From: an uncultured delta proteobacterium
GTDB taxonomy: Bacteria; Desulfobacterota; Binatia; UBA9968
Length of the DNA: 64,000 nt
Assembly: GCA_963745835.1 (NCBI GenBank)
Contig: CAVUZH010000003.1
Coordinates: 672,001 to 736,000, forward strand
Direction: 5' to 3'
Shown: positions 4,504-31,481 of the stretch, piece by piece
How positions within the stretch are numbered: the stretch's first letter is position 1
Layout: each line of letters opens with the position of its first letter
Notes under the pieces: model-generated
The model's input: only the letters and a program-made list of their open reading frames with translations
Database searches by the model: none
What the model was told of the DNA's origin: nothing
Program-made: the position numbers and the translations under genes

Positions 4504-5367
4504 ATGGAGAAAACAATGACCGAGAAACGTAAAACGCTGCGTGGATTACTGCAGGGACCGGGGTGCTCGATTGCGCCCAGCTGTAATGACGGCATTCAGG
4601 CGCGGCTGGTGGAGTGGCTCGGATTTCCACTGGTCCATATTTCCGGCAGCGGCCAACATCGCGCCCTCGGTTTTGCCGATGCCGGGATGCTCACACTTAC
4701 CGAGATGATTAATCGCGCGCGCGAGATCGTCGATGCCGTCGAACTTCCGATAGTCAGCGATGGCGAGACCGGTTACGGCAACGCCGTGAACGTTGTGCGC
4801 GCGGTGCGGGAATTCGAGCGCGCCGGTGTTGCCGCCATACACATCGAAGACCAGATGACACCGAAACGCGCCGGCCACGAAGGTTTCGACGTTGGCTTGG
4901 TTTCCAAAGCTGAATTTGTTGCCAAGATCAAGGCGGCGCTGGATACACGTCGCGATGAAAATCTGGTCATCATCGCGCGCTCGGAGGCCAAGGATTCATT
5001 GCAAGAACGACTCGACCGTGTCGGCGCTTGTTGCGATGCCGGAGCCGACGCGGTCTGGTTGAGCGCTCGCACGGAGGACGAAATCAAGGCCTTCGCTAAA
5101 CTTGGCAAACCACTCGTCGGGGTTCCGCCACGCCAGCTAATGCCGATCCAGCGCTATGGCGAACTGGGCGGGCGGGTCGGTTGCATTCCCACGGTTTTGC
5201 AGGTTGCCGCGCTGCACGGCATGCGCCAGTGTCTCGAAGAGCTGAAGCGAAGCGGCACCGAAGCGCGCTATTTCACGGAAACTCCGGGTATCGACGACAC
5301 CCGCAAGTGGTACACCAATCTCGGCAACCAAGAACTTAAAGACCTCGAAGCGAAGTATGGCTATTGA
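4504..5367 (+). CDS. Isocitrate lyase/PEP mutase family enzyme (PrpB-like, non-canonical active-site loop)
   Basis: DGETGYGNAVNV, IHIEDQMTPKRAGH and IIARSEA motifs. Confidence 0.85.
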   Translation: MEKTMTEKRKTLRGLLQGPGCSIAPSCNDGIQARLVEWLGFPLVHISGSGQHRALGFADAGMLTLTEMINRAREIVDAVELPIVSDGETGYGNAVNVVRAVREFERAGVAAIHIEDQMTPKRAGHEGFDVGLVSKAEFVAKIKAALDTRRDENLVIIARSEAKDSLQERLDRVGACCDAGADAVWLSARTEDEIKAFAKLGKPLVGVPPRQLMPIQRYGELGGRVGCIPTVLQVAALHGMRQCLEELKRSGTEARYFTETPGIDDTRKWYTNLGNQELKDLEAKYGY

Positions 5368-5417
5368 GATGCTGAGTCCGATCAGGGCTAGTACCATCAC
5401 GGCAGCGGAAGCATTCC

Positions 5418-6773
5418 GTGGATAGCATCACACAGACTATCGCTGAATACGCCTCTACAGTGGTGTTCGAGCATCTCGCCGCGGAAGCGGTGCATGCCGC
5501 CAAGCAGCGGCTGATCGATTCGCTGGGCTGTGCTGTCGGCGCTCACGATTGCGAGCCGGCGCAAATCGGCAGGCGATTGGCGGGCGGTCAAACACCGGGA
5601 AAATATCCCGGCAGAGTTCTCTATTTCGGCGACCGGCTGCCGGTGGAAAGCGCGGCGTTTATCAATACGTCGATGATTCGCAATTTCGATTTCAACGATC
5701 GCTATCCCGGCGGTCACCCGAGCGATTGCCTGGGCGCACTGCTGGCAATCTCTGGAGCCATGGACATCGATGGCAAGCGCTTTCTCACTAGCATGATCGT
5801 GGCTTACGAAATTTTTGCTCGCTTGAGCGACGCCACCGCACTGAGCCGCCGCGGCTGGGATCAAGGCTATGCCATCGGCATCGCGACGGCGGCGGGAGTC
5901 TGCAATTTATTGGAAACCTCGCGCGCAGCAACGGCGCATGCCGTAGGAATCGCTGCGGCTTCCAACCTGCCATTGCGGGTGACCCGATCAGGCGAGCTCA
6001 CCCCGTGGAAGAACGCGGCCACGGCGTACGCGTCGCGCAACGGTGTGTTTGCCGCATTACTTGCCGCCGAAGGAATGAGCGGCCCGGGCAATGCGTTTGA
6101 AGGCCGCAATGGTCTCTTTGAAAAGGTAACCGGACCGTTCGAGCTCGCGCCGCTACCAAATTGCGGCGGCGCGCATCTGACGCCCAGAGTTCAATTGAAA
6201 TACTGGCCCATCGAAACCAATGGCCAGCCCGCTGTTTGGGCCGCGCTGGACTTGCGTGAAAAAGCCCGGATCGACGAGCTCAAAGAGATCGAGGTTTTTA
6301 CCTCGAAGTTCACCTGGTTCGAGATCGGCAGCGAGCCCGAGAAATGGGATCCGCAGACACGTGAGACGGCGGATCACAGCCTGCCTTACATCTTGGCCAG
6401 GACTATGGTGGACGGACCGATCAAGATTTCATCTTTTGACGATGAAGCGGTCCGCGATCCCGTATTGCGACGCCTGATGGCTAAGATCAAGGTCATACCG
6501 GATGATCGCATCGAGGCCCTGCTGCCGCAGAAGACCTTCATGCGCGTCGTCGCGACGACCCTGGACGGACGTCAGCATATCGTCGAAGTATCCAATCCAC
6601 TGGGTCATCCGGACAACCCGATGCAAGACCGCCACATCGAAGAAAAATTTATTTCCTTAGTCGAGCCGGCGCTGGGCAAGGCTCGTTGCGGCGCGGCCCT
6701 CGAGACCTGGTGGCGCCTGGAGCAAGCGACTGGAGTGAGTGCCGCGATGCAGTTGCTCGAGATTGACCGCTAA
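5418..6773 (+). CDS. MmgE/PrpD family protein
   Basis: RNFDFND..GGHPSD, RSGELTPWK, ETADHSLPY and GHPDNP motifs; GTG start. Confidence 0.9.
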   Translation: MDSITQTIAEYASTVVFEHLAAEAVHAAKQRLIDSLGCAVGAHDCEPAQIGRRLAGGQTPGKYPGRVLYFGDRLPVESAAFINTSMIRNFDFNDRYPGGHPSDCLGALLAISGAMDIDGKRFLTSMIVAYEIFARLSDATALSRRGWDQGYAIGIATAAGVCNLLETSRAATAHAVGIAAASNLPLRVTRSGELTPWKNAATAYASRNGVFAALLAAEGMSGPGNAFEGRNGLFEKVTGPFELAPLPNCGGAHLTPRVQLKYWPIETNGQPAVWAALDLREKARIDELKEIEVFTSKFTWFEIGSEPEKWDPQTRETADHSLPYILARTMVDGPIKISSFDDEAVRDPVLRRLMAKIKVIPDDRIEALLPQKTFMRVVATTLDGRQHIVEVSNPLGHPDNPMQDRHIEEKFISLVEPALGKARCGAALETWWRLEQATGVSAAMQLLEIDR

Positions 6774-16893: not shown

Positions 16894-18323
16894 TTGGTCG
16901 CCCTAGCACATTGCGCGGTCGTCTGACGCTTTGGTACACCGCTATTCTCAGTGCGACGCTTGCGTTGCTCGGCGGGACATCGGTGGTCCTGCTCGATCAC
17001 GGGCTGCGAAATAACATCGATGATTCGCTCAACTCGGTCGCGCGATCGATCGCCGAGTCGGTGCGGCGTCCGGCAATTTTCGGCTCCGATATTGACGATT
17101 CGCTGCAAGCGCTGCTTGGACCCGAGTTGGCGCAACGGTTTTTCCAACTGCTGGATCCCTTCGGCCGGCTCGATCCCAGAGTGGCGCCGTCGGGAGAATC
17201 GCGTTTGCCTCTCAGCGCCAAGGCTCATCACAATGCCGAGCGAGGCCAGCCAACCTTGGAAACCGTGGCGATCCGCCCCGGATCCAGCAAGTCATTCCGG
17301 CTCCTGACCATGCCGGTGGTGAGGAATGGCGCTACGGTGAACATTGTTCAGGTGGCGATGTCGCTGGAAAATGTCGATGCCGCCCGTTCTAAATTCCTCC
17401 TCACTCTTTTCATCCTCGCCCCGGTCGCTCTGGCCGCATCCGCACTTGGCGGCTGGTTTCTAGCGCGCCGCGCGCTCACTCCCGTGGATGCAATGGTGGA
17501 CGCAGCCCGCCGGATTGAAGCTGAGGACCTATCCAAACGCCTGCCGACGCTGTCCAGCGATGATGAATTGGGTCGGTTGGCAACGGTCCTCAATGATATG
17601 CTTGCGCGACTCGAGCAGTCGTTCGGCGCCGTACGACGTTTTAGCGCCGATGCCGCCCATGAATTGCGCACGCCCTTGACGATTATCAAGGGCGAGATCG
17701 AGGTCGCTCTCAGATCCACTCAAGATCCAGCGGAAATTCGCCAGGCACTGACAAGTTGCCTCGAAGAAGTGGACCGATTAAACGCGCTCATGGAGGACCT
17801 GCTTTTGATGGCGCGCATGGAAGCAAAGGCGTTGAGCACGCCTGCGCGCCTGGTCAATCTGGCTGACGTGGTGCAAGAGGTCGCTCCGGCATTGACCGAG
17901 TTGGCCAGCCGGGCCGGAAATCATTGCACGGTCCTTGCGACGTCGCCGCTCTGGGTCGAGGGTTACGAGTCGCTGCTTTTCCGGCTGGTTTTCAATCTGG
18001 CTGAGAACGCAATCAAATACACCCCCCGCGGCGGCACCATTGATGTCACCCTCGAGCAGCAGGGCAGCGCGGCTGTTTTGCAGGTCAAAGACAATGGAGT
18101 CGGGATTGCTGCCGAAGCGCAGCAGCATATTTTCGACCGCTTCTATCGTGGCGATCCTTCACGAGAAGGCAGCGGCACCGGGCTTGGATTGGCCCTGGTA
18201 CGCTCCATCGCTGAGCTGCACCATGGCCAAATCAGTCTGTCCAGCACGCCTGGACGGGGCACCTGTTTTCGCGTGATTCTGCCGCTTCGAGCCGCACCTT
18301 TATCTTCGCCGCCCGTAGATTAG
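16890..18323 (+). CDS. Sensor histidine kinase (HAMP, HisKA, HATPase)
   Basis: Two TM segments, HELRTPL, NAIKY, DNGVGI and GTGLGL; ATGA overlap with the regulator gene. Confidence 0.95.
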   Translation: MIGRPSTLRGRLTLWYTAILSATLALLGGTSVVLLDHGLRNNIDDSLNSVARSIAESVRRPAIFGSDIDDSLQALLGPELAQRFFQLLDPFGRLDPRVAPSGESRLPLSAKAHHNAERGQPTLETVAIRPGSSKSFRLLTMPVVRNGATVNIVQVAMSLENVDAARSKFLLTLFILAPVALAASALGGWFLARRALTPVDAMVDAARRIEAEDLSKRLPTLSSDDELGRLATVLNDMLARLEQSFGAVRRFSADAAHELRTPLTIIKGEIEVALRSTQDPAEIRQALTSCLEEVDRLNALMEDLLLMARMEAKALSTPARLVNLADVVQEVAPALTELASRAGNHCTVLATSPLWVEGYESLLFRLVFNLAENAIKYTPRGGTIDVTLEQQGSAAVLQVKDNGVGIAAEAQQHIFDRFYRGDPSREGSGTGLGLALVRSIAELHHGQISLSSTPGRGTCFRVILPLRAAPLSSPPVD

Positions 18324-18327
18324 AAGA

Positions 18328-18360
18328 TTCTAATTCTTTCCTCATTCTCCTCTAATCCTT
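18328..18360 (+). promoter_or_regulatory. Three 11-bp-phased direct repeats, putative OmpR-family binding box upstream of degP
   Basis: CTAAT/CTCAT/CTAAT at 18330, 18341 and 18352. Confidence 0.5.
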
Positions 18361-18425
18361 GCGACTTAAACTACGCTTTGAAAGGTATTAGCGTTTTATC
18401 GTTCACAAAACGAAGGAGGAGAAGA

Positions 18426-19877
18426 ATGATAGCGAAGAGAAATTTTATCGTGGCCAGCTTGGCGGTTGCGCTGGTCGGTGGTGGATTTGCAATCGCCCGA
18501 GAGAGCCAGAACACGACATTGCCGGTCCAAGCGCGTACAGATGACCCGAGTTCTGCGTCGCGCGCTTCTTTGCCGGCGTTTGCCGATCTGGCTGAGCGCG
18601 TCTCGCCGGCAGTGGTCAATATCAAGGTGACTGCGGTTGCGAGGACCAATCTTCCGGATGAGTCTTACGGCGAGAACTTTCCGTTTCCCGGTTATCGCAG
18701 TCCTGTTCCCCAACAACCCCGTGAGTTCAGGCGGCAAGGGAGCGGATCGGGATTCATCATTCGCAAGGATGGGCTGATCCTGACTAACAACCACGTCGTC
18801 GAAAAAGCTCAGGAGATCACGGTGACTTTGAGCGACAAACAGCAGTATAAGGCCAGAATTCTAGGACGAGATCCGAAGACCGACCTGGCGGTTATCAAGA
18901 TCGATCCCAAAGCGGCAATGCCGACCGCGCCTCTCGGCAATTCCGATGAGCTCAGAGTAGGGGATTGGGTGATGGCAATCGGCAACCCGTTCGGTTTGAG
19001 CAACACGGTTACGTCGGGAATCGTCAGCGCCAAGGGAAGAACGATCGGCGCCGGGCCATACGATGATTTTATTCAAACCGATGCATCGATCAATCCCGGC
19101 AACTCCGGCGGTCCTCTTTTCAACATGGCTGGTGAGGTGGTCGGCATCAACACGGCGATTTTCAGCCAGGGAGGCGGCAATATTGGAATAGGCTTCGCCA
19201 TTCCGGTGAATCTGGTGAAGAATTTGGTTCCGGAATTGGAGACCAAGGGAACGGTCACGCGCGGCTGGCTCGGTGTGTCGGTTCAGCCGGTGACGCCGGA
19301 TCTCGCGCGCTCATTCAATTTGGATAAAGAGCAGGGCGCGCTGGTGGGTGATGTGACGGCGCAAGGCCCGGCGGAAAAAGCCGGCATCAAACGCGGTGAC
19401 GTGATCGTCAGTTACGACGGCAAGAAGATCCAGGAGACGGCGAGTTTGCCGGCGCTGGTGGCTGCCACGCCGGTGGGTAAGACCGTTGCGGTCGAGGTCA
19501 TGCGCGATGGCAAAATGCAATCGGTCAATGTCACCATTGCTAAACTCAACGAGCAGACTGCGGCTCTAGAGCCGCAGCAGGAGAAGGGCGAGTGGGGATT
19601 GGCGCTGCAGAACATCCCGCCTGAGCAGCGGCGCACAATGAACCTTCCTGGCAAAGAAGGCGTGCTGGTAACGGCTGTCGTGCCCGGTAGCCCGGCCGCC
19701 AACGCGAACATCCAAGCAGGGGATGTGATCTTGCAGGTCAACCGAGCTCCGGTGGAGTCCGTGCAAGGCATGAAAGATGAAATTGCCAAGAGCAAAGGAG
19801 ACAAGCCGCTGCTGCTATTGCTCCGGCGCGCCGATGGCAGTACGTCTTATGCCGCTTTGTCGCGCAACGTCGGATAG
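18426..19877 (+). CDS. degP: Do/DegQ (HtrA) periplasmic serine endoprotease with two PDZ domains
   Basis: TNNHVV, DLAVIK, GNSGGPL and two PDZ domains; AGGAGG RBS. Confidence 0.92.
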   Translation: MIAKRNFIVASLAVALVGGGFAIARESQNTTLPVQARTDDPSSASRASLPAFADLAERVSPAVVNIKVTAVARTNLPDESYGENFPFPGYRSPVPQQPREFRRQGSGSGFIIRKDGLILTNNHVVEKAQEITVTLSDKQQYKARILGRDPKTDLAVIKIDPKAAMPTAPLGNSDELRVGDWVMAIGNPFGLSNTVTSGIVSAKGRTIGAGPYDDFIQTDASINPGNSGGPLFNMAGEVVGINTAIFSQGGGNIGIGFAIPVNLVKNLVPELETKGTVTRGWLGVSVQPVTPDLARSFNLDKEQGALVGDVTAQGPAEKAGIKRGDVIVSYDGKKIQETASLPALVAATPVGKTVAVEVMRDGKMQSVNVTIAKLNEQTAALEPQQEKGEWGLALQNIPPEQRRTMNLPGKEGVLVTAVVPGSPAANANIQAGDVILQVNRAPVESVQGMKDEIAKSKGDKPLLLLLRRADGSTSYAALSRNVG

Positions 19878-25878: not shown

Positions 25879-26555
25879 CCGGATGTGGTTGCGGCGCACT
25901 GTTCGAGCCGTACATATCTTATAACTAAACGCGTTCTTCGAGTAAATGTCCAAAATGCCGTGCTGAGACTATGAATGTATTCTCAGTGTAAAGGGTTCCG
26001 ATGCGAACGATCGAACCGAGGCTGATGCTCTTGCCGTCAGGCGCGATGCCGTTCAGCGCCAGAGTTCTCGTCGGCGAGAAGTGAGTCTAGTTCTCATCGG
26101 TCGGCCCCGGCTTCAGTTCCCGGTACTCATCATTCCAAGAGCGATGCTCTAACGATTACAGCGGCGTCGGAAGTGACTTTGCTTACCGGTCCTATGTTGA
26201 TCGCCGACGCCGCGATCATCTTCCCGTCGATCATTCATTTACCTATCAAAATAACCAAGGTCAGCGACATTTTTCACGGATATCAATTGCGCACGTCTGT
26301 GACCCACAGCATCCGACGATAGCTTGCCTCCCCGGTTGGCGGAACGGGGACAGTTCTCGGCGGCCAGCAAAGCCACAGTCAGAAAATCTTTGCATTTTTA
26401 CTGGTCCCCTGAGTCTTAGCGGGGCGAAATGCAGTGTTTGTGCACGGAAGCTTATGCCCAGATATCCGTGCGCGCGCTTATCGGCTCCGATGCTGGAACG
26501 CCTGTAAGTCATTTTTCATCGAAACCGACCGTCGTCCCTTCTAGGAACTCACGCC

Positions 26556-26671
26556 GAGCTGTAACTTTATAACAGTAGAGCTCTACAGTATAAAATCTTC
26601 AGCTGATAGGGGCTTGCATTTGAGCTCTGGATTATGTTATCGCCAGCTCATGAGAACAACTCCGAGAGCTC
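26556..26671. repeat. Array of six SAGCTS hexamers at exact 22-bp periodicity in the dndB-like promoter region
   Basis: GAGCTG 26556, GAGCTC 26578, CAGCTG 26600, GAGCTC 26622, CAGCTC 26644, GAGCTC 26666; all spacers 16 nt and non-repetitive. Confidence 0.9.
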
Positions 26672-26697
26672 AGCATGCTGCGAGGTGAGGTGATTCA

Positions 26698-27807
26698 ATG
26701 AAGGTCAGTTTTCCAGTTATGAGAGGGAACATAGGCGGGCGGCAATACTACTCATTGATGATCTCGCTTTCGGAAATTCCTCGGCTTTTTAAGTTTAACG
26801 ATTGGGAACAATGCACTCCGGATTTGCGCGCGCAGAGGGTTCTTAACAAGGCGAGGGTCCCCGACATTACGAAATACATACTCGAGAATGAGGACGGCTA
26901 TCTGTTTTCGTCGATTACAGCAGCCTACTCGTGTCCAGCGAATTTCCTAGCGTCAGCGGAGGACTCCGACATCGGCACGTTGGAGATGGAGTTGGAAAAC
27001 GTCGAGTTCATTATCAATGACGGCCAGCATCGTTGCGCCGCGATTGCCGCCGCGCTTAAGGAGAACCCTGCGCTGGGGAAAGATAAAATTTCAGTGCTCC
27101 TGTTTGAAACTGAAAACTCCGAACGGCTTCAACAGATGTTTTCGGATTTAAATCGGTTCGTCCAGCAGACCTCAAAATCGCTGGGCATGCTCTACGATCG
27201 TCGAGATAATCTTTCCGCGCTCACAATGGATGTATCTGAACAGGTGCCCGTCTTTCGGAGCATGGTAGACAAGGAGAAGGTTACGATTCCGCTGAGATCC
27301 CCCAAGCTCTTTACCATTTCCGCTTTATATGAGGCGAATGAAGAACTGTTGGGAAAGAAGATCGATAAAAGGGCGACAGCGGCCTACATAGAACTCCTCA
27401 ACACTGCTGTCGAATACTGGACGGAGTTGTCAAAGATCATCGGCGACTGGCAGAGAGTCAGAAATGGAGAACTCAGCGCTTCCGAACTTCGTCAAGAGAA
27501 AATCAACACTCACGCGGTCGTTTTGCGCGCTCTCGGAGGCGTCGGAAGAACGCTGCTCGGAAGATATCCTGAGGACTGGCAAATGAAACTGAGGCTTTTG
27601 GAGAAAATCGATTGGCGGAAGTCTGTGGGTGGTAGTGCGAATCCTCTGTGGGATGACGTGTGTATCACAGCGGGTTCAGTCGTCTCCAACAGGCAGGCAC
27701 GAGCGGCTACTTTGGCCGTCTTATTAAGAGAGATTGGCGAATCGCCAAATGGAAAGGTGACACACAGAGAATCCCGGGAGGTGACTAGTGCTCAAGCAGC
27801 CGAGTAA
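26698..27807 (+). CDS. dndB: DndB-like DGQHR-domain protein (ParB/Srx-like N-terminal fold), stand-alone
   Basis: RAQRVLNKARVP, YLFSSITA, INDGQHR, QQMFSDLN, YDRRD and KLFT motifs; GAGGTG RBS. Confidence 0.88.
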   Translation: MKVSFPVMRGNIGGRQYYSLMISLSEIPRLFKFNDWEQCTPDLRAQRVLNKARVPDITKYILENEDGYLFSSITAAYSCPANFLASAEDSDIGTLEMELENVEFIINDGQHRCAAIAAALKENPALGKDKISVLLFETENSERLQQMFSDLNRFVQQTSKSLGMLYDRRDNLSALTMDVSEQVPVFRSMVDKEKVTIPLRSPKLFTISALYEANEELLGKKIDKRATAAYIELLNTAVEYWTELSKIIGDWQRVRNGELSASELRQEKINTHAVVLRALGGVGRTLLGRYPEDWQMKLRLLEKIDWRKSVGGSANPLWDDVCITAGSVVSNRQARAATLAVLLREIGESPNGKVTHRESREVTSAQAAE

Positions 27808-29710
27808 CGGAAGGCGTCACAAAAAATCACGCGTTGCCGATCAGAAAAAATCTGCGGGCAGCAGTCAAAGTTCGATCGATAGCGAAATCACCAGTCATAA
27901 GGAAGATTTAAACACAACTCGCCTGCGGCAGTTGCTCCCGACTGCATGGAACATGATTCGACCATATTGGTCGTCGGAGGACCGCTGGGCGGCTTGGGGG
28001 CTGCTTACCGTCGTTATCGCACTCACGCTAGCGATGGTCTACATGAGTGTTCTTTTCAATCACTGGAACAACACTTTTTACACCGCTCTGCAGGAGAGAA
28101 ATCCTACAGTTTTTTTCGAGCAGCTGATCGGTCTTGCCTGGCTCGTGGGTTTTATAATCGTCTTTGCTGTTTATCAGCTTTATCTCAACCAAATGCTTGA
28201 AATTCGCTGGCGGCGCTGGCTTACCGAAAAATATCTTCGGGGTTGGCTGACTGACGGTGCCTATTATCGGATGCAGCTCATGGCGAGTGAAACCGACAAC
28301 CCGGATCAGCGCATCGCCGAAGACGTTCATCTGCTCATTTCTCATACGCTTTCGCTTGTCATTGGAGGTCTGCGTGCGCTGGTAACTTTGATTGCCTTTG
28401 TGACGATCCTCTGGGCGCTTTCGGGAACCCTGACAGTCCCGATTGGTGGATCATCCCTTACCTTGCCCGGTTACATGGTATGGGCAGCCATCCTGTATGC
28501 TATTGGCGGCACTTGGCTGACCCACTGGATCGGCCGCCCGCTCGTGCGGCTAAACTACGACAAGCAACGTTGTGAAGCCGACTTCCGATTCGGCCTGGTG
28601 CGCTTCCGGGAGAACAGCGAGGGAGTGGCGCTCTACCGGGGCGAGGCGGATGAGCTCCGTGGTTTTCGGGGACGGTTCGAGGCGGTGGTGATGAACTGGT
28701 GGGACATCATGCGCCGACAGAAGCGGCTGACCTACTTCACTTCAGGCTACCAACAAGCGGCTTGGATCTTCCCCTCGATCGTGGCGGCGCCACGCTACTT
28801 CAGTGGCGATCTTTCCCTCGGAGGGCTTATACAAACCATCGGCGCCTTCAGTCAGGTACAGGCTTCGCTTAGTTTTTTTATTGACTCGTATAAAACGGTT
28901 GCTGAATGGTGCTCGGTGGTTGAGCGGCTCTCGGGTTTCGAGCGCGCTCTTGAGCGCGTGCGCACTCAGGCGGCGACTGCTGGCGGCGTTCAGAACGTCT
29001 GCGGAGACGCGGATCTGATAATTAAGGATGTTGATCTCTATCTACCCAATGGTCAGCCACTTATCGCGGATGTGAATGTCTCCATCTTGCGCGGGGACAC
29101 CGTTCTGTTGGGGGGAGCTTCTGGTTTGGGAAAGAGTACGCTCTTCCGGGCCGTAGCCGGGATCTGGCCGTTTGGTCGCGGCGAGATCCGAGGACCTCGC
29201 GACCGCAATGTTCTCTTTTTGCCACAGAAGCCATACTTGCCGATCGGCACACTTCGGGAAGTGGTGAGTTATCCGATGCCGTCCGCGGGTGTGGACGACC
29301 TAACACTGCGCGAAGCGCTTGAGGCGGTCGGGCTCTCTCGGCTAGCGGGGAGGCTCAGCGAGGCCGGCAATTGGGCGCTCCAACTTTCGCCGGGCGAGCA
29401 GCAGCGCATCGCCTTCGCTCGAGCGTTGGTCCAGAAGCCCGATTGGCTGTTTCTCGACGAGGCGACCTCGGCGGTGGACGAGGCCACCGAGGCGCGGCTT
29501 TATCGACTGGTCGGTGAGCGACTCCCGGGAACGACGGTATTCAGTGTAGGCCATCGCGTGACACTACGTCCGTTCCACTCTCGCCATCTTTTGGTGCGGA
29601 CCAACGGGAACGGGCCCTCCTCCATCGTGGAAGTGACCGCCGTGCCTGAATCGGCTCGACGTGGCGTCGGCGTTGTTATGCGCGACGAAACAGCCGCAAT
29701 GGCTGGATAA
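27788..29710 (+). CDS. ABC transporter permease/ATPase fusion, SbmA/BacA-like ABC (YddA/BclA/ExsE) family
   Basis: DNPDQRIAED, EADFRFGLVRFRENSEG, Walker A GASGLGKS, LSPGEQQRIAFAR and LDEATSA; start uncertain. Confidence 0.9.
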   Translation: MLKQPSNGRRHKKSRVADQKKSAGSSQSSIDSEITSHKEDLNTTRLRQLLPTAWNMIRPYWSSEDRWAAWGLLTVVIALTLAMVYMSVLFNHWNNTFYTALQERNPTVFFEQLIGLAWLVGFIIVFAVYQLYLNQMLEIRWRRWLTEKYLRGWLTDGAYYRMQLMASETDNPDQRIAEDVHLLISHTLSLVIGGLRALVTLIAFVTILWALSGTLTVPIGGSSLTLPGYMVWAAILYAIGGTWLTHWIGRPLVRLNYDKQRCEADFRFGLVRFRENSEGVALYRGEADELRGFRGRFEAVVMNWWDIMRRQKRLTYFTSGYQQAAWIFPSIVAAPRYFSGDLSLGGLIQTIGAFSQVQASLSFFIDSYKTVAEWCSVVERLSGFERALERVRTQAATAGGVQNVCGDADLIIKDVDLYLPNGQPLIADVNVSILRGDTVLLGGASGLGKSTLFRAVAGIWPFGRGEIRGPRDRNVLFLPQKPYLPIGTLREVVSYPMPSAGVDDLTLREALEAVGLSRLAGRLSEAGNWALQLSPGEQQRIAFARALVQKPDWLFLDEATSAVDEATEARLYRLVGERLPGTTVFSVGHRVTLRPFHSRHLLVRTNGNGPSSIVEVTAVPESARRGVGVVMRDETAAMAG

Positions 29711-29987: not shown

Positions 29988-31481
29988 TCATTTCACCTTT
30001 TCAATATCGCTCGGCTTCCAGCTCTGATCGAAGAATGCCTTGGTCGGACCGTAGAGCCGTAGGATGACGAAGAAGCCTTTGTCGGGAAGCGTCTTCAGCC
30101 AGTTTCTTCCTTCGACCGGGGAGGTCGGACCGAAATAGATATCAGTGGAGCCGTCCGGATTCGTCGCCGGCTTGTCCATGGTGTTGATCGACGGGAAAGC
30201 CTGACCGTTGTCGAGCCCGGAGCCGGTAACCGGATCGTAGACGGTAACCGACCAGAACAACGCGGCCGGAATGCCTTTGGGCAGGCTGAGTTTGTAGCTG
30301 TTAGCGCCCAGTAGGAAATCACCGTTAGCGTCGACGAAAGTCACCGGGTACTTCGCGCCAACGTTCTCCATGTTGACTGCCATCCCCGGGCTCGTGGAAT
30401 AGGCAAAGGTGAAGAAGCTCGTCCGAGGATCTATGTAGTTGAAGGTGTCCGCGGTAAACGTCGGATTGCCCGGAAAGACGTTAGCCCAGCGCCGATCCTT
30501 GTACCATAGGCGGTTGGGCACGATGGTCTGCGGCTCGTAAGCGATCGCATGACCGATGCGATAGGACGTCTTTGCCGCCTTGTCGAGAAGGTCGCGCGTG
30601 CGCGGATCAGGCTTGAAGGGTTTGCCTTTTTCGATGCCGAGCGCCGCGAGCATGCCCCGCATCTCCATGTCGGCCGGATCGGCATATTCATGCTGGATAA
30701 AGCGGTTCAACATATCGAAAGCGCTGCCGTCGCTGGGGTACAACATATTGGCCGGTACCGCGGACGCATCGGGGAATTGCATGGGCTTGGCCGCCGCCTT
30801 CTTACCAAGCGGATAAATGCGCGTCTGCTCCATCAGCTTGACCGGCTCGTTTAGTTGCTTCGGGTCCTTGAAGAAGCCGCGCCAGAACACGAATACTCCG
30901 TAGGTGCGCGACCTGAACGCGAGGTATCCCTCCGGCACTTTGCCCTTGAAGTCCGGCGGCAGCAAAAGATATCTGCCCCCCTTGCCCTTGTCGGGGCCGG
31001 GTAAACCGACGTCGCCGCACCAAACCTTGCCGCCGATTTGCCGTTCCGAACAAATCGGCCGCTGAAAGAAGTCGTTGAGAATGCCCTGAAGGCCGGGCGG
31101 CACTTCGATTACCATCGGCCCTTCGTCGTTCAGGTCGAGATAGCCCAGCGCATAGATTACGTCTGAGTTGGGAGTTGTGATCAAGGTCTTGGCGTTGAGC
31201 CGCTGCTTCCAGATCGGCAGAATGTTGTAACCCTTGCCGAAAACCTTTTCCGAACCCTCCTTCATGCCGTACATGTTCAGCACGGGCAGCGCCCAGATAT
31301 AGGACTGCACCGCGCGCTGAAATACTAGCTCCTCCTTCAACGCCGTAATCCCTTCCTTGGATAGATACCCGTTTTTGAAGGGAAGGCTCGCGAGGTCGTC
31401 GTAGCGCGACACCCCTACGATCGTGGGCGTGGCCAATCCAACAACTAGACTCAACGTAACAAACGTTCTTGGCAGCAACAT
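29988..31481 (-). CDS. DUF1254/DUF1214 exported protein
   Basis: TTPNSDVIYA, GPDKGKGGRYL, FWSVTVYD and LRLYGP motifs; signal peptide. Confidence 0.88.
   Translation of the reverse strand: MLLPRTFVTLSLVVGLATPTIVGVSRYDDLASLPFKNGYLSKEGITALKEELVFQRAVQSYIWALPVLNMYGMKEGSEKVFGKGYNILPIWKQRLNAKTLITTPNSDVIYALGYLDLNDEGPMVIEVPPGLQGILNDFFQRPICSERQIGGKVWCGDVGLPGPDKGKGGRYLLLPPDFKGKVPEGYLAFRSRTYGVFVFWRGFFKDPKQLNEPVKLMEQTRIYPLGKKAAAKPMQFPDASAVPANMLYPSDGSAFDMLNRFIQHEYADPADMEMRGMLAALGIEKGKPFKPDPRTRDLLDKAAKTSYRIGHAIAYEPQTIVPNRLWYKDRRWANVFPGNPTFTADTFNYIDPRTSFFTFAYSTSPGMAVNMENVGAKYPVTFVDANGDFLLGANSYKLSLPKGIPAALFWSVTVYDPVTGSGLDNGQAFPSINTMDKPATNPDGSTDIYFGPTSPVEGRNWLKTLPDKGFFVILRLYGPTKAFFDQSWKPSDIEKVK

Follow-up and report, generated by a model that had tools for sequence, protein, structure and literature searches.

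Why should a dndB gene with no dndC or dndD partner in its genome carry six short boxes of one pattern, evenly phased, across its promoter? The question is raised by a 64,000-nt stretch of DNA from an uncultured delta proteobacterium (Binatia, UBA9968; assembly GCA_963745835.1, contig CAVUZH010000003.1, positions 672,001-736,000 of the forward strand), which we call the window and number from its first letter. To our knowledge, the one role known for DndB is repression of the phosphorothioation operon, and a single operator has been mapped, in Salmonella. We argue here that the array probably serves autorepression of an operon formed by dndB and an ABC transporter gene, through phased and cooperative binding of DndB.

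A phased array conserved upstream of dndB

The array covers 116 bp (26556..26671, no strand assigned) and consists of six SAGCTS hexamers (S being G or C) at an exact 22-bp period: GAGCTG at 26556 (box 1), GAGCTC at 26578 (box 2), CAGCTG at 26600 (box 3), GAGCTC at 26622..26627 (box 4), CAGCTC at 26644..26649 (box 5) and GAGCTC at 26666..26671 (box 6), the last ending 26 nt before the ATG of dndB. The five spacers are 16 nt each, with a G+C content of 32.5% vs. 53.8% for the genome. Boxes 1-3 and their spacers form an imperfect 48-bp palindrome (26557-26604) centred on box 2, with arms that are 71% complementary. An earlier, sequence-only reading of the locus had listed these AGCT-centred hexamers, with their phase, spacers and distance from the ATG, together with the promoter-like words TAAAAT (26591), TTGCAT (26614) and TATGTT (26633); all of these coordinates were reproduced.

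That reading had also placed the array far beyond chance, and the counts bear this out. Pairs of the form SAGCTS-N16-SAGCTS occur five times in the window, every one of them in the array, vs. a mean of 0.06 and a maximum of 1 in 100 dinucleotide shuffles. Throughout the 7,276,699-base genome (97.1% complete), three in-phase SAGCTS boxes are found nowhere except in the array, and a control with the reversed pattern gave 0. A genome scan for AGCT chains at 21-23 bp returned one chain of six, which is the array, and five chains of three, while the longest AGCT chains at other periods had three or four members. The array is thus confirmed as real and far from chance.

Related dndB genes were compared in 80 loci, taken from 275 tblastn-confirmed stretches with dndB homologs. 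The closest come from Binatia and from metagenome-assembled genomes labelled 'delta proteobacterium' (78-92% protein identity); the remainder, 47-64% identical, belong to Acidobacteriota, Verrucomicrobiota, Alpha-, Beta- and Gammaproteobacteria, Chloroflexota, Nitrospirota, Planctomycetota, Bacteroidota, candidate-phyla-radiation lineages and others. Upstream regions were scored in the window and 78 of these loci (n = 79), leaving out L014, which starts within dndB, and L025, whose 5′ part is missing. The score was the longest run of any single 4-mer at 21-23-bp steps within 250 bp upstream of the gene. A chain of at least four was present in 47 of the 79 regions, across many phyla, so that the phased motif upstream of homologs that the sequence-only reading had named as a check was indeed found. 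Among the 47, chains had four members in 18 cases, five in 8, six in 10, seven in 10 and eight in 1, and in 46 the repeated 4-mer lay in the AGCT box, either as AGCT or as an overlapping word. Chains of this length were seen in 2 of 1580 mononucleotide shuffles, upstream (250 bp) of 1 of 313 other open reading frames in the same loci, and in 3 of 510 tiles of the window, one of them holding the array and the other two, which overlap each other, a chain of GCGT words.

A logo of 291 phased boxes shows G or C at position -1 in 97% and at +4 in 98%, with A at -2 in 44% and T at +5 in 54%, a tendency towards the longer palindrome aGAGCTCt. Conservation is confined to 6-8 bp of each 22-bp unit, with none in the spacers. 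The distance between 210 neighbouring box pairs was 22 bp in 147 cases, 23 bp in 46 and 21 bp in 17. In 14 aligned upstream regions of the Binatia type, the AGCT cores, the TTG of the -35 element and the TA of the -10 element are invariant or nearly so, while mean column identity is 58%. Conserved cores and promoter words amid diverged sequence are the pattern expected of protein-binding sites and a promoter under selection. On a quick protein tree of 76 rows, presence of the array is clustered (14 changes vs. 23.2 in shuffles, with 0 of 500 shuffles as low), and the tree itself departs from taxonomy, a Moraniibacteriota sequence, for example, standing beside one from Rubrimonas. Together, these comparisons support the view that the array is a conserved cis-element tied to dndB and under selection. 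A literature search of main texts, supplements excluded, found no description of such an array; the supplements of PMC10853773 and PMC4507180 might hold relevant neighbourhoods or promoter sequences.

Two chains of other words came up in these scans. The sole match among the 313 control regions consists of five ACTA words at 21-23 bp in locus L065, upstream of an open reading frame at 4523-5494 on the reverse strand. The second chain in the window, of four GCGT words at 21-23-bp steps, lies at 18376-18750 (510 tiles scanned); Tandem Repeats Finder reported no repeat in the surrounding 18000-19200.

DndB, its promoter and a model of autorepression

The gene downstream of the array (26698..27807, forward strand) encodes a 369-amino acid protein assigned to the DndB family by profile matches and conserved motifs. 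It matches PF14072 with an E value of 1.9e-103 (346.6 bits, cut-off 29.1), the DGQHR domain TIGR03187 with 5e-64 and the PADLOC DndB profile with 4e-105, and scores 329 bits against TIGR03233, barely over the cut-off of 328. Local tblastn found a single dndB copy in the genome. DndC and DndD had no match in the whole genome, which extends the earlier observation that the window contains no dndA, dndC, dndD or dndE. DndE had no match either, in a search that was uninformative, its control giving a signal in no genome. No DndC-like cluster was found among the open reading frames of the 80 related loci by all-against-all clustering. The stand-alone gene of the sequence-only reading is not strictly alone: the start of an ABC transporter gene overlaps the dndB stop by 20 nt.

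Alignment of 42 DndB sequences showed that D108, G109, Q110, H111 and R112, Q46 and R47, and the F148...N152 motif are invariant, as is the R265-x6-H272 pair in the helical C-domain. In an AlphaFold model built from 42 sequences (predicted local distance difference test, pLDDT, 78.6), residues ~14-156 form a ParB/Srx-like DGQHR domain. Its structural matches, of moderate score, are PadC (Z 6.7; root-mean-square deviation 3.8 over 98 aligned residues), KorB (Z 6.0; 3.9 over 96) and sulfiredoxin (Z 5.6); Foldseek gave ParB an E value of 1.6e-3 with a probability of 0.99, the range for ParB and KorB being 0.97-0.99. The C-domain (residues 160-350) had no structural match above background, and a sequence search of DndB against solved structures returned just a chance-level match to AraR (E 0.37). 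A homodimer is predicted through residues 6-154, including D108 and H111, at a score of 0.73, where the highest of three controls scored 0.00; agreement of contacts between runs is at least 57%, and the pLDDT of the partner is at least 76. Of proteins solved as pairs of one chain, 20 of 30 come up to the mark used for this score; of those solved as single chains, 1 of 23 does.

The likely -35 element is TTGCAT at 26614..26619 (forward strand), in the spacer that separates box 3 from box 4. The aligned hexamer is TTGACA in 9 of 14 relatives, and TTG is invariant in 14 of 14. A probable, weak extended -10 element, TGtTATCGC, follows at 26635..26643 (forward strand) and aligns with TGnTAGAAA or TGnTAGATA of the relatives. 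Boxes 1-3 thus lie upstream of the putative -35, box 4 within the promoter spacer, box 5 against the -10 element and about where transcription would be expected to start, and box 6 in what would be the 5′ untranslated region (UTR), ahead of a ribosome-binding-like GAGGTGAGGTG (26682..26692, forward strand) recognised by eye. A consensus scan found a second promoter-like match around box 2, ATAACA-16-TAAAAT (26569..26596, forward strand), which is unconserved in relatives.

The Binatia register is half a unit off from the arrangement common outside Binatia. There, one box abuts the -35 and the next the -10, with one further box after them and two to four upstream, as in L040 (GAGCTC|TTGACA ... 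GAGCTC|TATAAT). A box abutting TTGnnn was found in 24 of the 47 array loci, with the following box often abutting the -10. In many loci a conserved leader hairpin, GAGCG-N4-6-CGCTC, comes next, and a last SAGCTS box stands ~20 nt ahead of the start codon; hairpin and last box were seen upstream of dndB in L032, L034, L036, L040, L056, L074, L077 and L081, and again in L088 (3739-3991), and the hairpin is absent from the window. In either register, RNA polymerase would find its site covered by a protein seated on the boxes.

The most likely explanation is that the SAGCTS boxes are the operator of the DndB encoded just downstream. DndB, with a ParB/Srx-type nucleotide-binding N-domain and a helical C-domain, would pair through the N-domain and sit on short boxes, most of them palindromic, whose spacing of two helical turns puts them on one DNA face, with adjacent molecules assisting each other's binding. 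With the array filled, the promoter spacer (box 4), the start site (box 5) and the 5′ UTR (box 6) would all be occupied and the promoter shut, and the repressed unit would be a two-gene operon of dndB and a transporter gene whose product resembles PDB 6tqe. We favour autorepression because promoter spacer, likely start site and 5′ UTR are all overlain by boxes; DndB as the binder, repression and cooperativity are each steps that we infer. Nucleotides may also modulate binding, by analogy with Salmonella DndB. Going by the title of Xia et al. 2019, DndB is reportedly ATP-dependent. The cooperative autorepressor put forward in the sequence-only reading fits, by comparison only, with boxes that appear selected, are linked to dndB, overlap the promoter and are spaced about two turns apart, in a genome without DndC or DndD. 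The nucleotide gating that it added is compatible with the predicted N-domain homodimer but is not demonstrated by it.

The best precedent is the DndB (DptB) of Salmonella enterica Cerro 87, which represses dndBCDE via two TACG-N10-CGTA motifs in its own promoter, with footprints that reach from -35 to +4 (PMC4507180). The two proteins share the PF14072/DGQHR family and the place of the regulator gene at the head of its unit. In both cases 4-bp core words are repeated across the regulator's own promoter, the negative regulation that was demonstrated in Salmonella being proposed here. The differences are that half-sites lie 14 bp apart in Salmonella, whereas four to eight SAGCTS boxes follow each other at ~22 bp here, and that no dndCDE is under regulation here, the downstream gene being that of an ABC transporter.

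Variant boxes also count in favour of the model. Loci that lack AGCT often have other hexamers in its place, with frame and 16-nt spacers retained, and those of L021, L019 and L022 all fit SA-NN-TS. The boxes of L021 are GACATC and then three copies of GATGTC with 16-nt spacers, the last two abutting TTGACA and TTATAAT; those of L019 are CAGGTC, CAGGTC, CACGTC and GACCTG; and L022 has GAGGTC, CAACTC, GAGTTG and CAACTC, with the same changed core in both orientations. A clade of ten proteins is instead accompanied by GTAWRC-type boxes abutting the -35. In L070 and L071, GTATGC-type boxes abut TTGACA. We compared columns at least 90% conserved in 43 AGCT-class proteins with the variant-box lineages. 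A segment conserved in the AGCT class, S330-N331-R332...A337 with A340, is altered in the variant-box lineages: S330T and N331H in L021, S330G and A340E in L022, R332K and A340N in L028, and S327D, S330N, N331R and A337D in the GTAWRC clade. This makes the S330-N331-R332...A340 segment a lead for a putative DNA-reading element. Asymmetric boxes, for their part, tend to alternate in orientation, CAGCTC standing beside GAGCTG 53 times vs. 21 same-orientation pairs. In other loci too, GAGCTG often has a T after it and CAGCTC an A before it.

Several observations weigh against autorepression by DndB. No chain of at least four was found in 32 of the 79 homolog upstream regions, and the closest relative, L005, with a protein 92% identical, has a base change in two of its six boxes. 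The -10 of the window is weak (TATCGC), and the position of the start site is a prediction only. Fold matching recognised no DNA-binding domain in DndB, the ParB-type helix-turn-helix included. The dimer model resembles the known pairing of ParB N-domains, on which its high score may draw, and the correlation between residues and boxes comes from few, unequally related lineages and is not statistical. Finally, the canonical dndB-C-D-E-A operon of a Rhizobium plasmid (36.8% identity) has no upstream SAGCTS chain, which makes the Salmonella precedent that of a distant relative with a different site.

A bolder version of the model, which we put forward tentatively and consider doubtful as a whole, is that a large, horizontally mobile DndB clade that has left phosphorothioation would serve as a portable, nucleotide-gated master switch. 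DndB dimers would daisy-chain on the boxes, each box being shared by two neighbours, and the resulting filament would seal the promoter until a drop in nucleotide or a phage factor released the cargo (GHKL-methylase modules, helicases or the Binatia importer), while S330-N331-R332 would set box specificity.

Competing explanations for the boxes

The strongest competitor borrows from the ParB fold: DndB would bind the boxes as a loading site, form a closed clamp with bound nucleotide, and then move or spread along the DNA to act at a distance or mark it, as KorB and ParB-like proteins do. Like KorB of RK2 (PDB 8qa8, 7bm8) and other ParB-fold binders, DndB has a ParB/Srx N-domain (the PadC, KorB and Foldseek matches given above) with a predicted symmetric pairing, and there are far more boxes than a simple repressor requires. 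KorB is, in addition, a repressor at repeated operators, a role that we only propose for this DndB. However, in almost every array locus the boxes overlie the promoter, as one phased cluster on a single promoter and not as the dispersed palindromes of KorB; the genome of the window has only one array; no ParA or Rep partner was seen among the neighbours scanned; and, unlike in KorB and ParB, no helix-turn-helix was recognised and the DGQHR motif replaces the ParB arginine patch. We consider such a loading site unlikely. The narrower proposal in the sequence-only reading of a centromere or parS site finds no partition or replication gene nearby, and just 6-8 bp of 22 are conserved.

It is quite improbable, in our view, that the boxes are targets of a DNA-modifying enzyme and that the promoter senses whether it is modified, in the way of some restriction-modification controls. 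Methylases typically target words such as AGCT and CAGCTG, and a PF01555 methylase lies beside dndB in 12 of the 80 loci. A precedent is also at hand in Streptomyces lividans, where phosphorothioate sites near the dndB promoter repress it (PMC6186775). On the other hand, most array loci have no methylase nearby, the genome of the window contains no homolog of the PF01555 methylase at E 1e-3, and the box remains SAGCTS across the array loci, most of them without a linked methylase. The linked PF01555 methylases match solved enzymes over the S-adenosylmethionine motif only, with no special likeness to a solved AGCT- or CAGCTG-specific enzyme, a result that speaks neither for nor against the boxes as their target.

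Could DndB instead be mainly an effector, a nucleotide-degrading ParB-type enzyme or a HEPN-type RNase, that the operator holds at very low levels because it is harmful? HEPN domains carry an Rx4-6H motif in a four-helix core, and R265-x6-H272 is invariant in the 42 sequences. Makarova and colleagues describe DndB as ParB plus HEPN (PMC3632139), and half of ten sampled downstream proteins match families of helicases, ATPases or methylases of the sort common in defence islands. A reappraisal of Dnd systems weighs DndB as a regulator or possible effector, its passages on DndB making no mention of orphan arrays (PMC10853773). No immunity or antitoxin partner is evident, however, and no HEPN structure was among the fold matches, which is a weak test as far as the C-domain is concerned. 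Such a role would in any case add to operator binding and not replace it; as the principal function of DndB we give it little credence.

Binding by a regulator other than DndB is very unlikely. SAGCTS is short enough to be read by other proteins, and the assignment of DndB as binder is itself indirect. Nevertheless, the array travels with dndB over unrelated phyla and neighbourhoods, with a tree that does not follow taxonomy, no other gene is common to the loci, and the genome of the window has no second array on which a global regulator could act.

A transcribed short repeat-spacer array, as the sequence-only reading had also entertained, or a plasmid-type iteron origin has next to no likelihood. 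The even 22-bp period is like that of iterons, in that several copies face the same side of the DNA at intervals of about two helical turns. In iterons, however, most of the unit is conserved and the repeats occupy origins beside rep, whereas here the hexamer alone (6-8 bp per unit) is conserved, at a promoter whose -35 and -10 hexamers occupy the spacers. The array is a unique, chromosomal site, the neighbours include no Rep, Cas or partition gene, and a scan of 26200-27000 with the covariance models of Rfam 15 gave 0 matches at E up to 1.

Gene neighbourhoods of the array-dndB cassette

Autorepression by DndB, the reading that we prefer, would in the window extend to the ABC transporter gene (27788..29710, forward strand). 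It encodes 640 amino acids, with an SbmA/BacA-like membrane domain fused to an ATPase; matches to PF06472 (E 9e-59), PF05992 (E 2e-39) and PF00005 (E 4e-17) assign it to the SbmA/BacA type, and its nearest solved relative is PDB 6tqe (E 4e-100). No terminator-like site was found between the two genes, and the 20-nt overlap suggests that they are probably co-transcribed and translationally coupled. Metatranscriptome contigs from four runs match parts of both coding regions, e.g. 26704-26940 and 27788-27931, at 90-100% likeness; none covers the array, and none bridges the gene junction under a 31-letter rule. Such contigs are blind to starts and strands and may include DNA, so that they are no evidence for a start site or for co-transcription.

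Recurrent neighbours are few in the all-against-all clustering. The ABC gene is found downstream, by strong tblastn match, in 13 of the 80 loci, all of the Binatia type. Thirteen loci have an ~800-amino acid protein that matches nothing in Pfam, NCBIfam or PADLOC and is predicted to fold as a GHKL/Hsp90-like ATPase (model pLDDT 75.5; Foldseek E 6e-10). It forms part of a three-gene cassette of dndB, the GHKL-like ATPase and a convergent PF01555 DNA methylase, with the same phased boxes upstream (L020:4001-8913, L026:4001-8699, L024:1323-6133 and 10 further loci). These cassettes share with the window the DndB clade and a SAGCTS or SA-NN-TS array before dndB; the window, unlike them, has neither ATPase nor methylase, and its neighbourhood is not defence-like. 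An SNF2 helicase recurs as a neighbour in 5 loci. In L070 (5345-7066) and L071 (5343-7787), dndB is followed by a 226-amino acid protein without a Pfam match and then by the SNF2 helicase.

Ten further downstream proteins from the remaining loci, a partial cover, were scanned against Pfam. Five gave SNF2-related (helicase cluster, L071), Eco57I-like (1181 amino acids, L079), AAA_15/AAA_21 (L046), UvrD-like (L033) and ResIII (L076) matches, and the other five no Pfam family. The only constant neighbour of the array is dndB. Among 40 relatives of the genome of the window, with scoring limited to 32 candidates in each genome, 2 gave a DndB and 2 an ABC homolog, so that the pairing of the two is patchy; the ABC homolog of G008, 56% identical, has neither dndB nor an array upstream. 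The varied neighbours and patchy pairing suggest that array plus dndB behaves as a mobile cassette placed before different genes, which in this lineage include a transporter gene. The 'new system' of the sequence-only reading accordingly gives way to a widespread array-dndB cassette that precedes very different genes and encodes a member of a known regulator family: what is new is the operator architecture, not the system.

The array is also found in a cultured bacterium. On plasmid NZ_CP025514.1 of Neorhizobium sp. SOG26, the gene of an orphan DndB (49.6% identity) is preceded by the array together with leader hairpin and last box, and it adjoins TIR, CopG and N-6 methylase genes. Presence of the array in the orphan clade and its absence from the canonical Rhizobium operon suggest that it is a property of a DndB clade uncoupled from phosphorothioation. 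The nearest 80 relatives of this curated-model DndB are almost never beside dnd genes, and ~60% have the putative SAGCTS operator, at 22 bp, over the promoter. The SAGCTS/22-bp rule may serve as a simple sequence signature for finding DndB cassettes, with DndB as a candidate general regulator that stands before defence-like genes of many kinds and whose role would compare with that of other regulators in defence islands. The model is testable, being that of a ParB-fold protein without a recognised DNA-binding domain that would read DNA, and Neorhizobium sp. SOG26 offers a cultured carrier of array and dndB that is open to bench work.

Locus L089 (4506-8159), on E. coli plasmid pP11a, has a longer gene annotated as dndB (1620 nt) beside a ParB/RepB/Spo0J gene and psiB in an IncF leading region; no phased boxes were found upstream of it. 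In the window itself, the genes upstream of dndB encode an NMT1/SsuA-like binding protein, an alpha/beta hydrolase and an FAD-binding protein, and the ABC transporter gene is followed by a convergent DUF1254/DUF1214 gene on the reverse strand (29988-31481).

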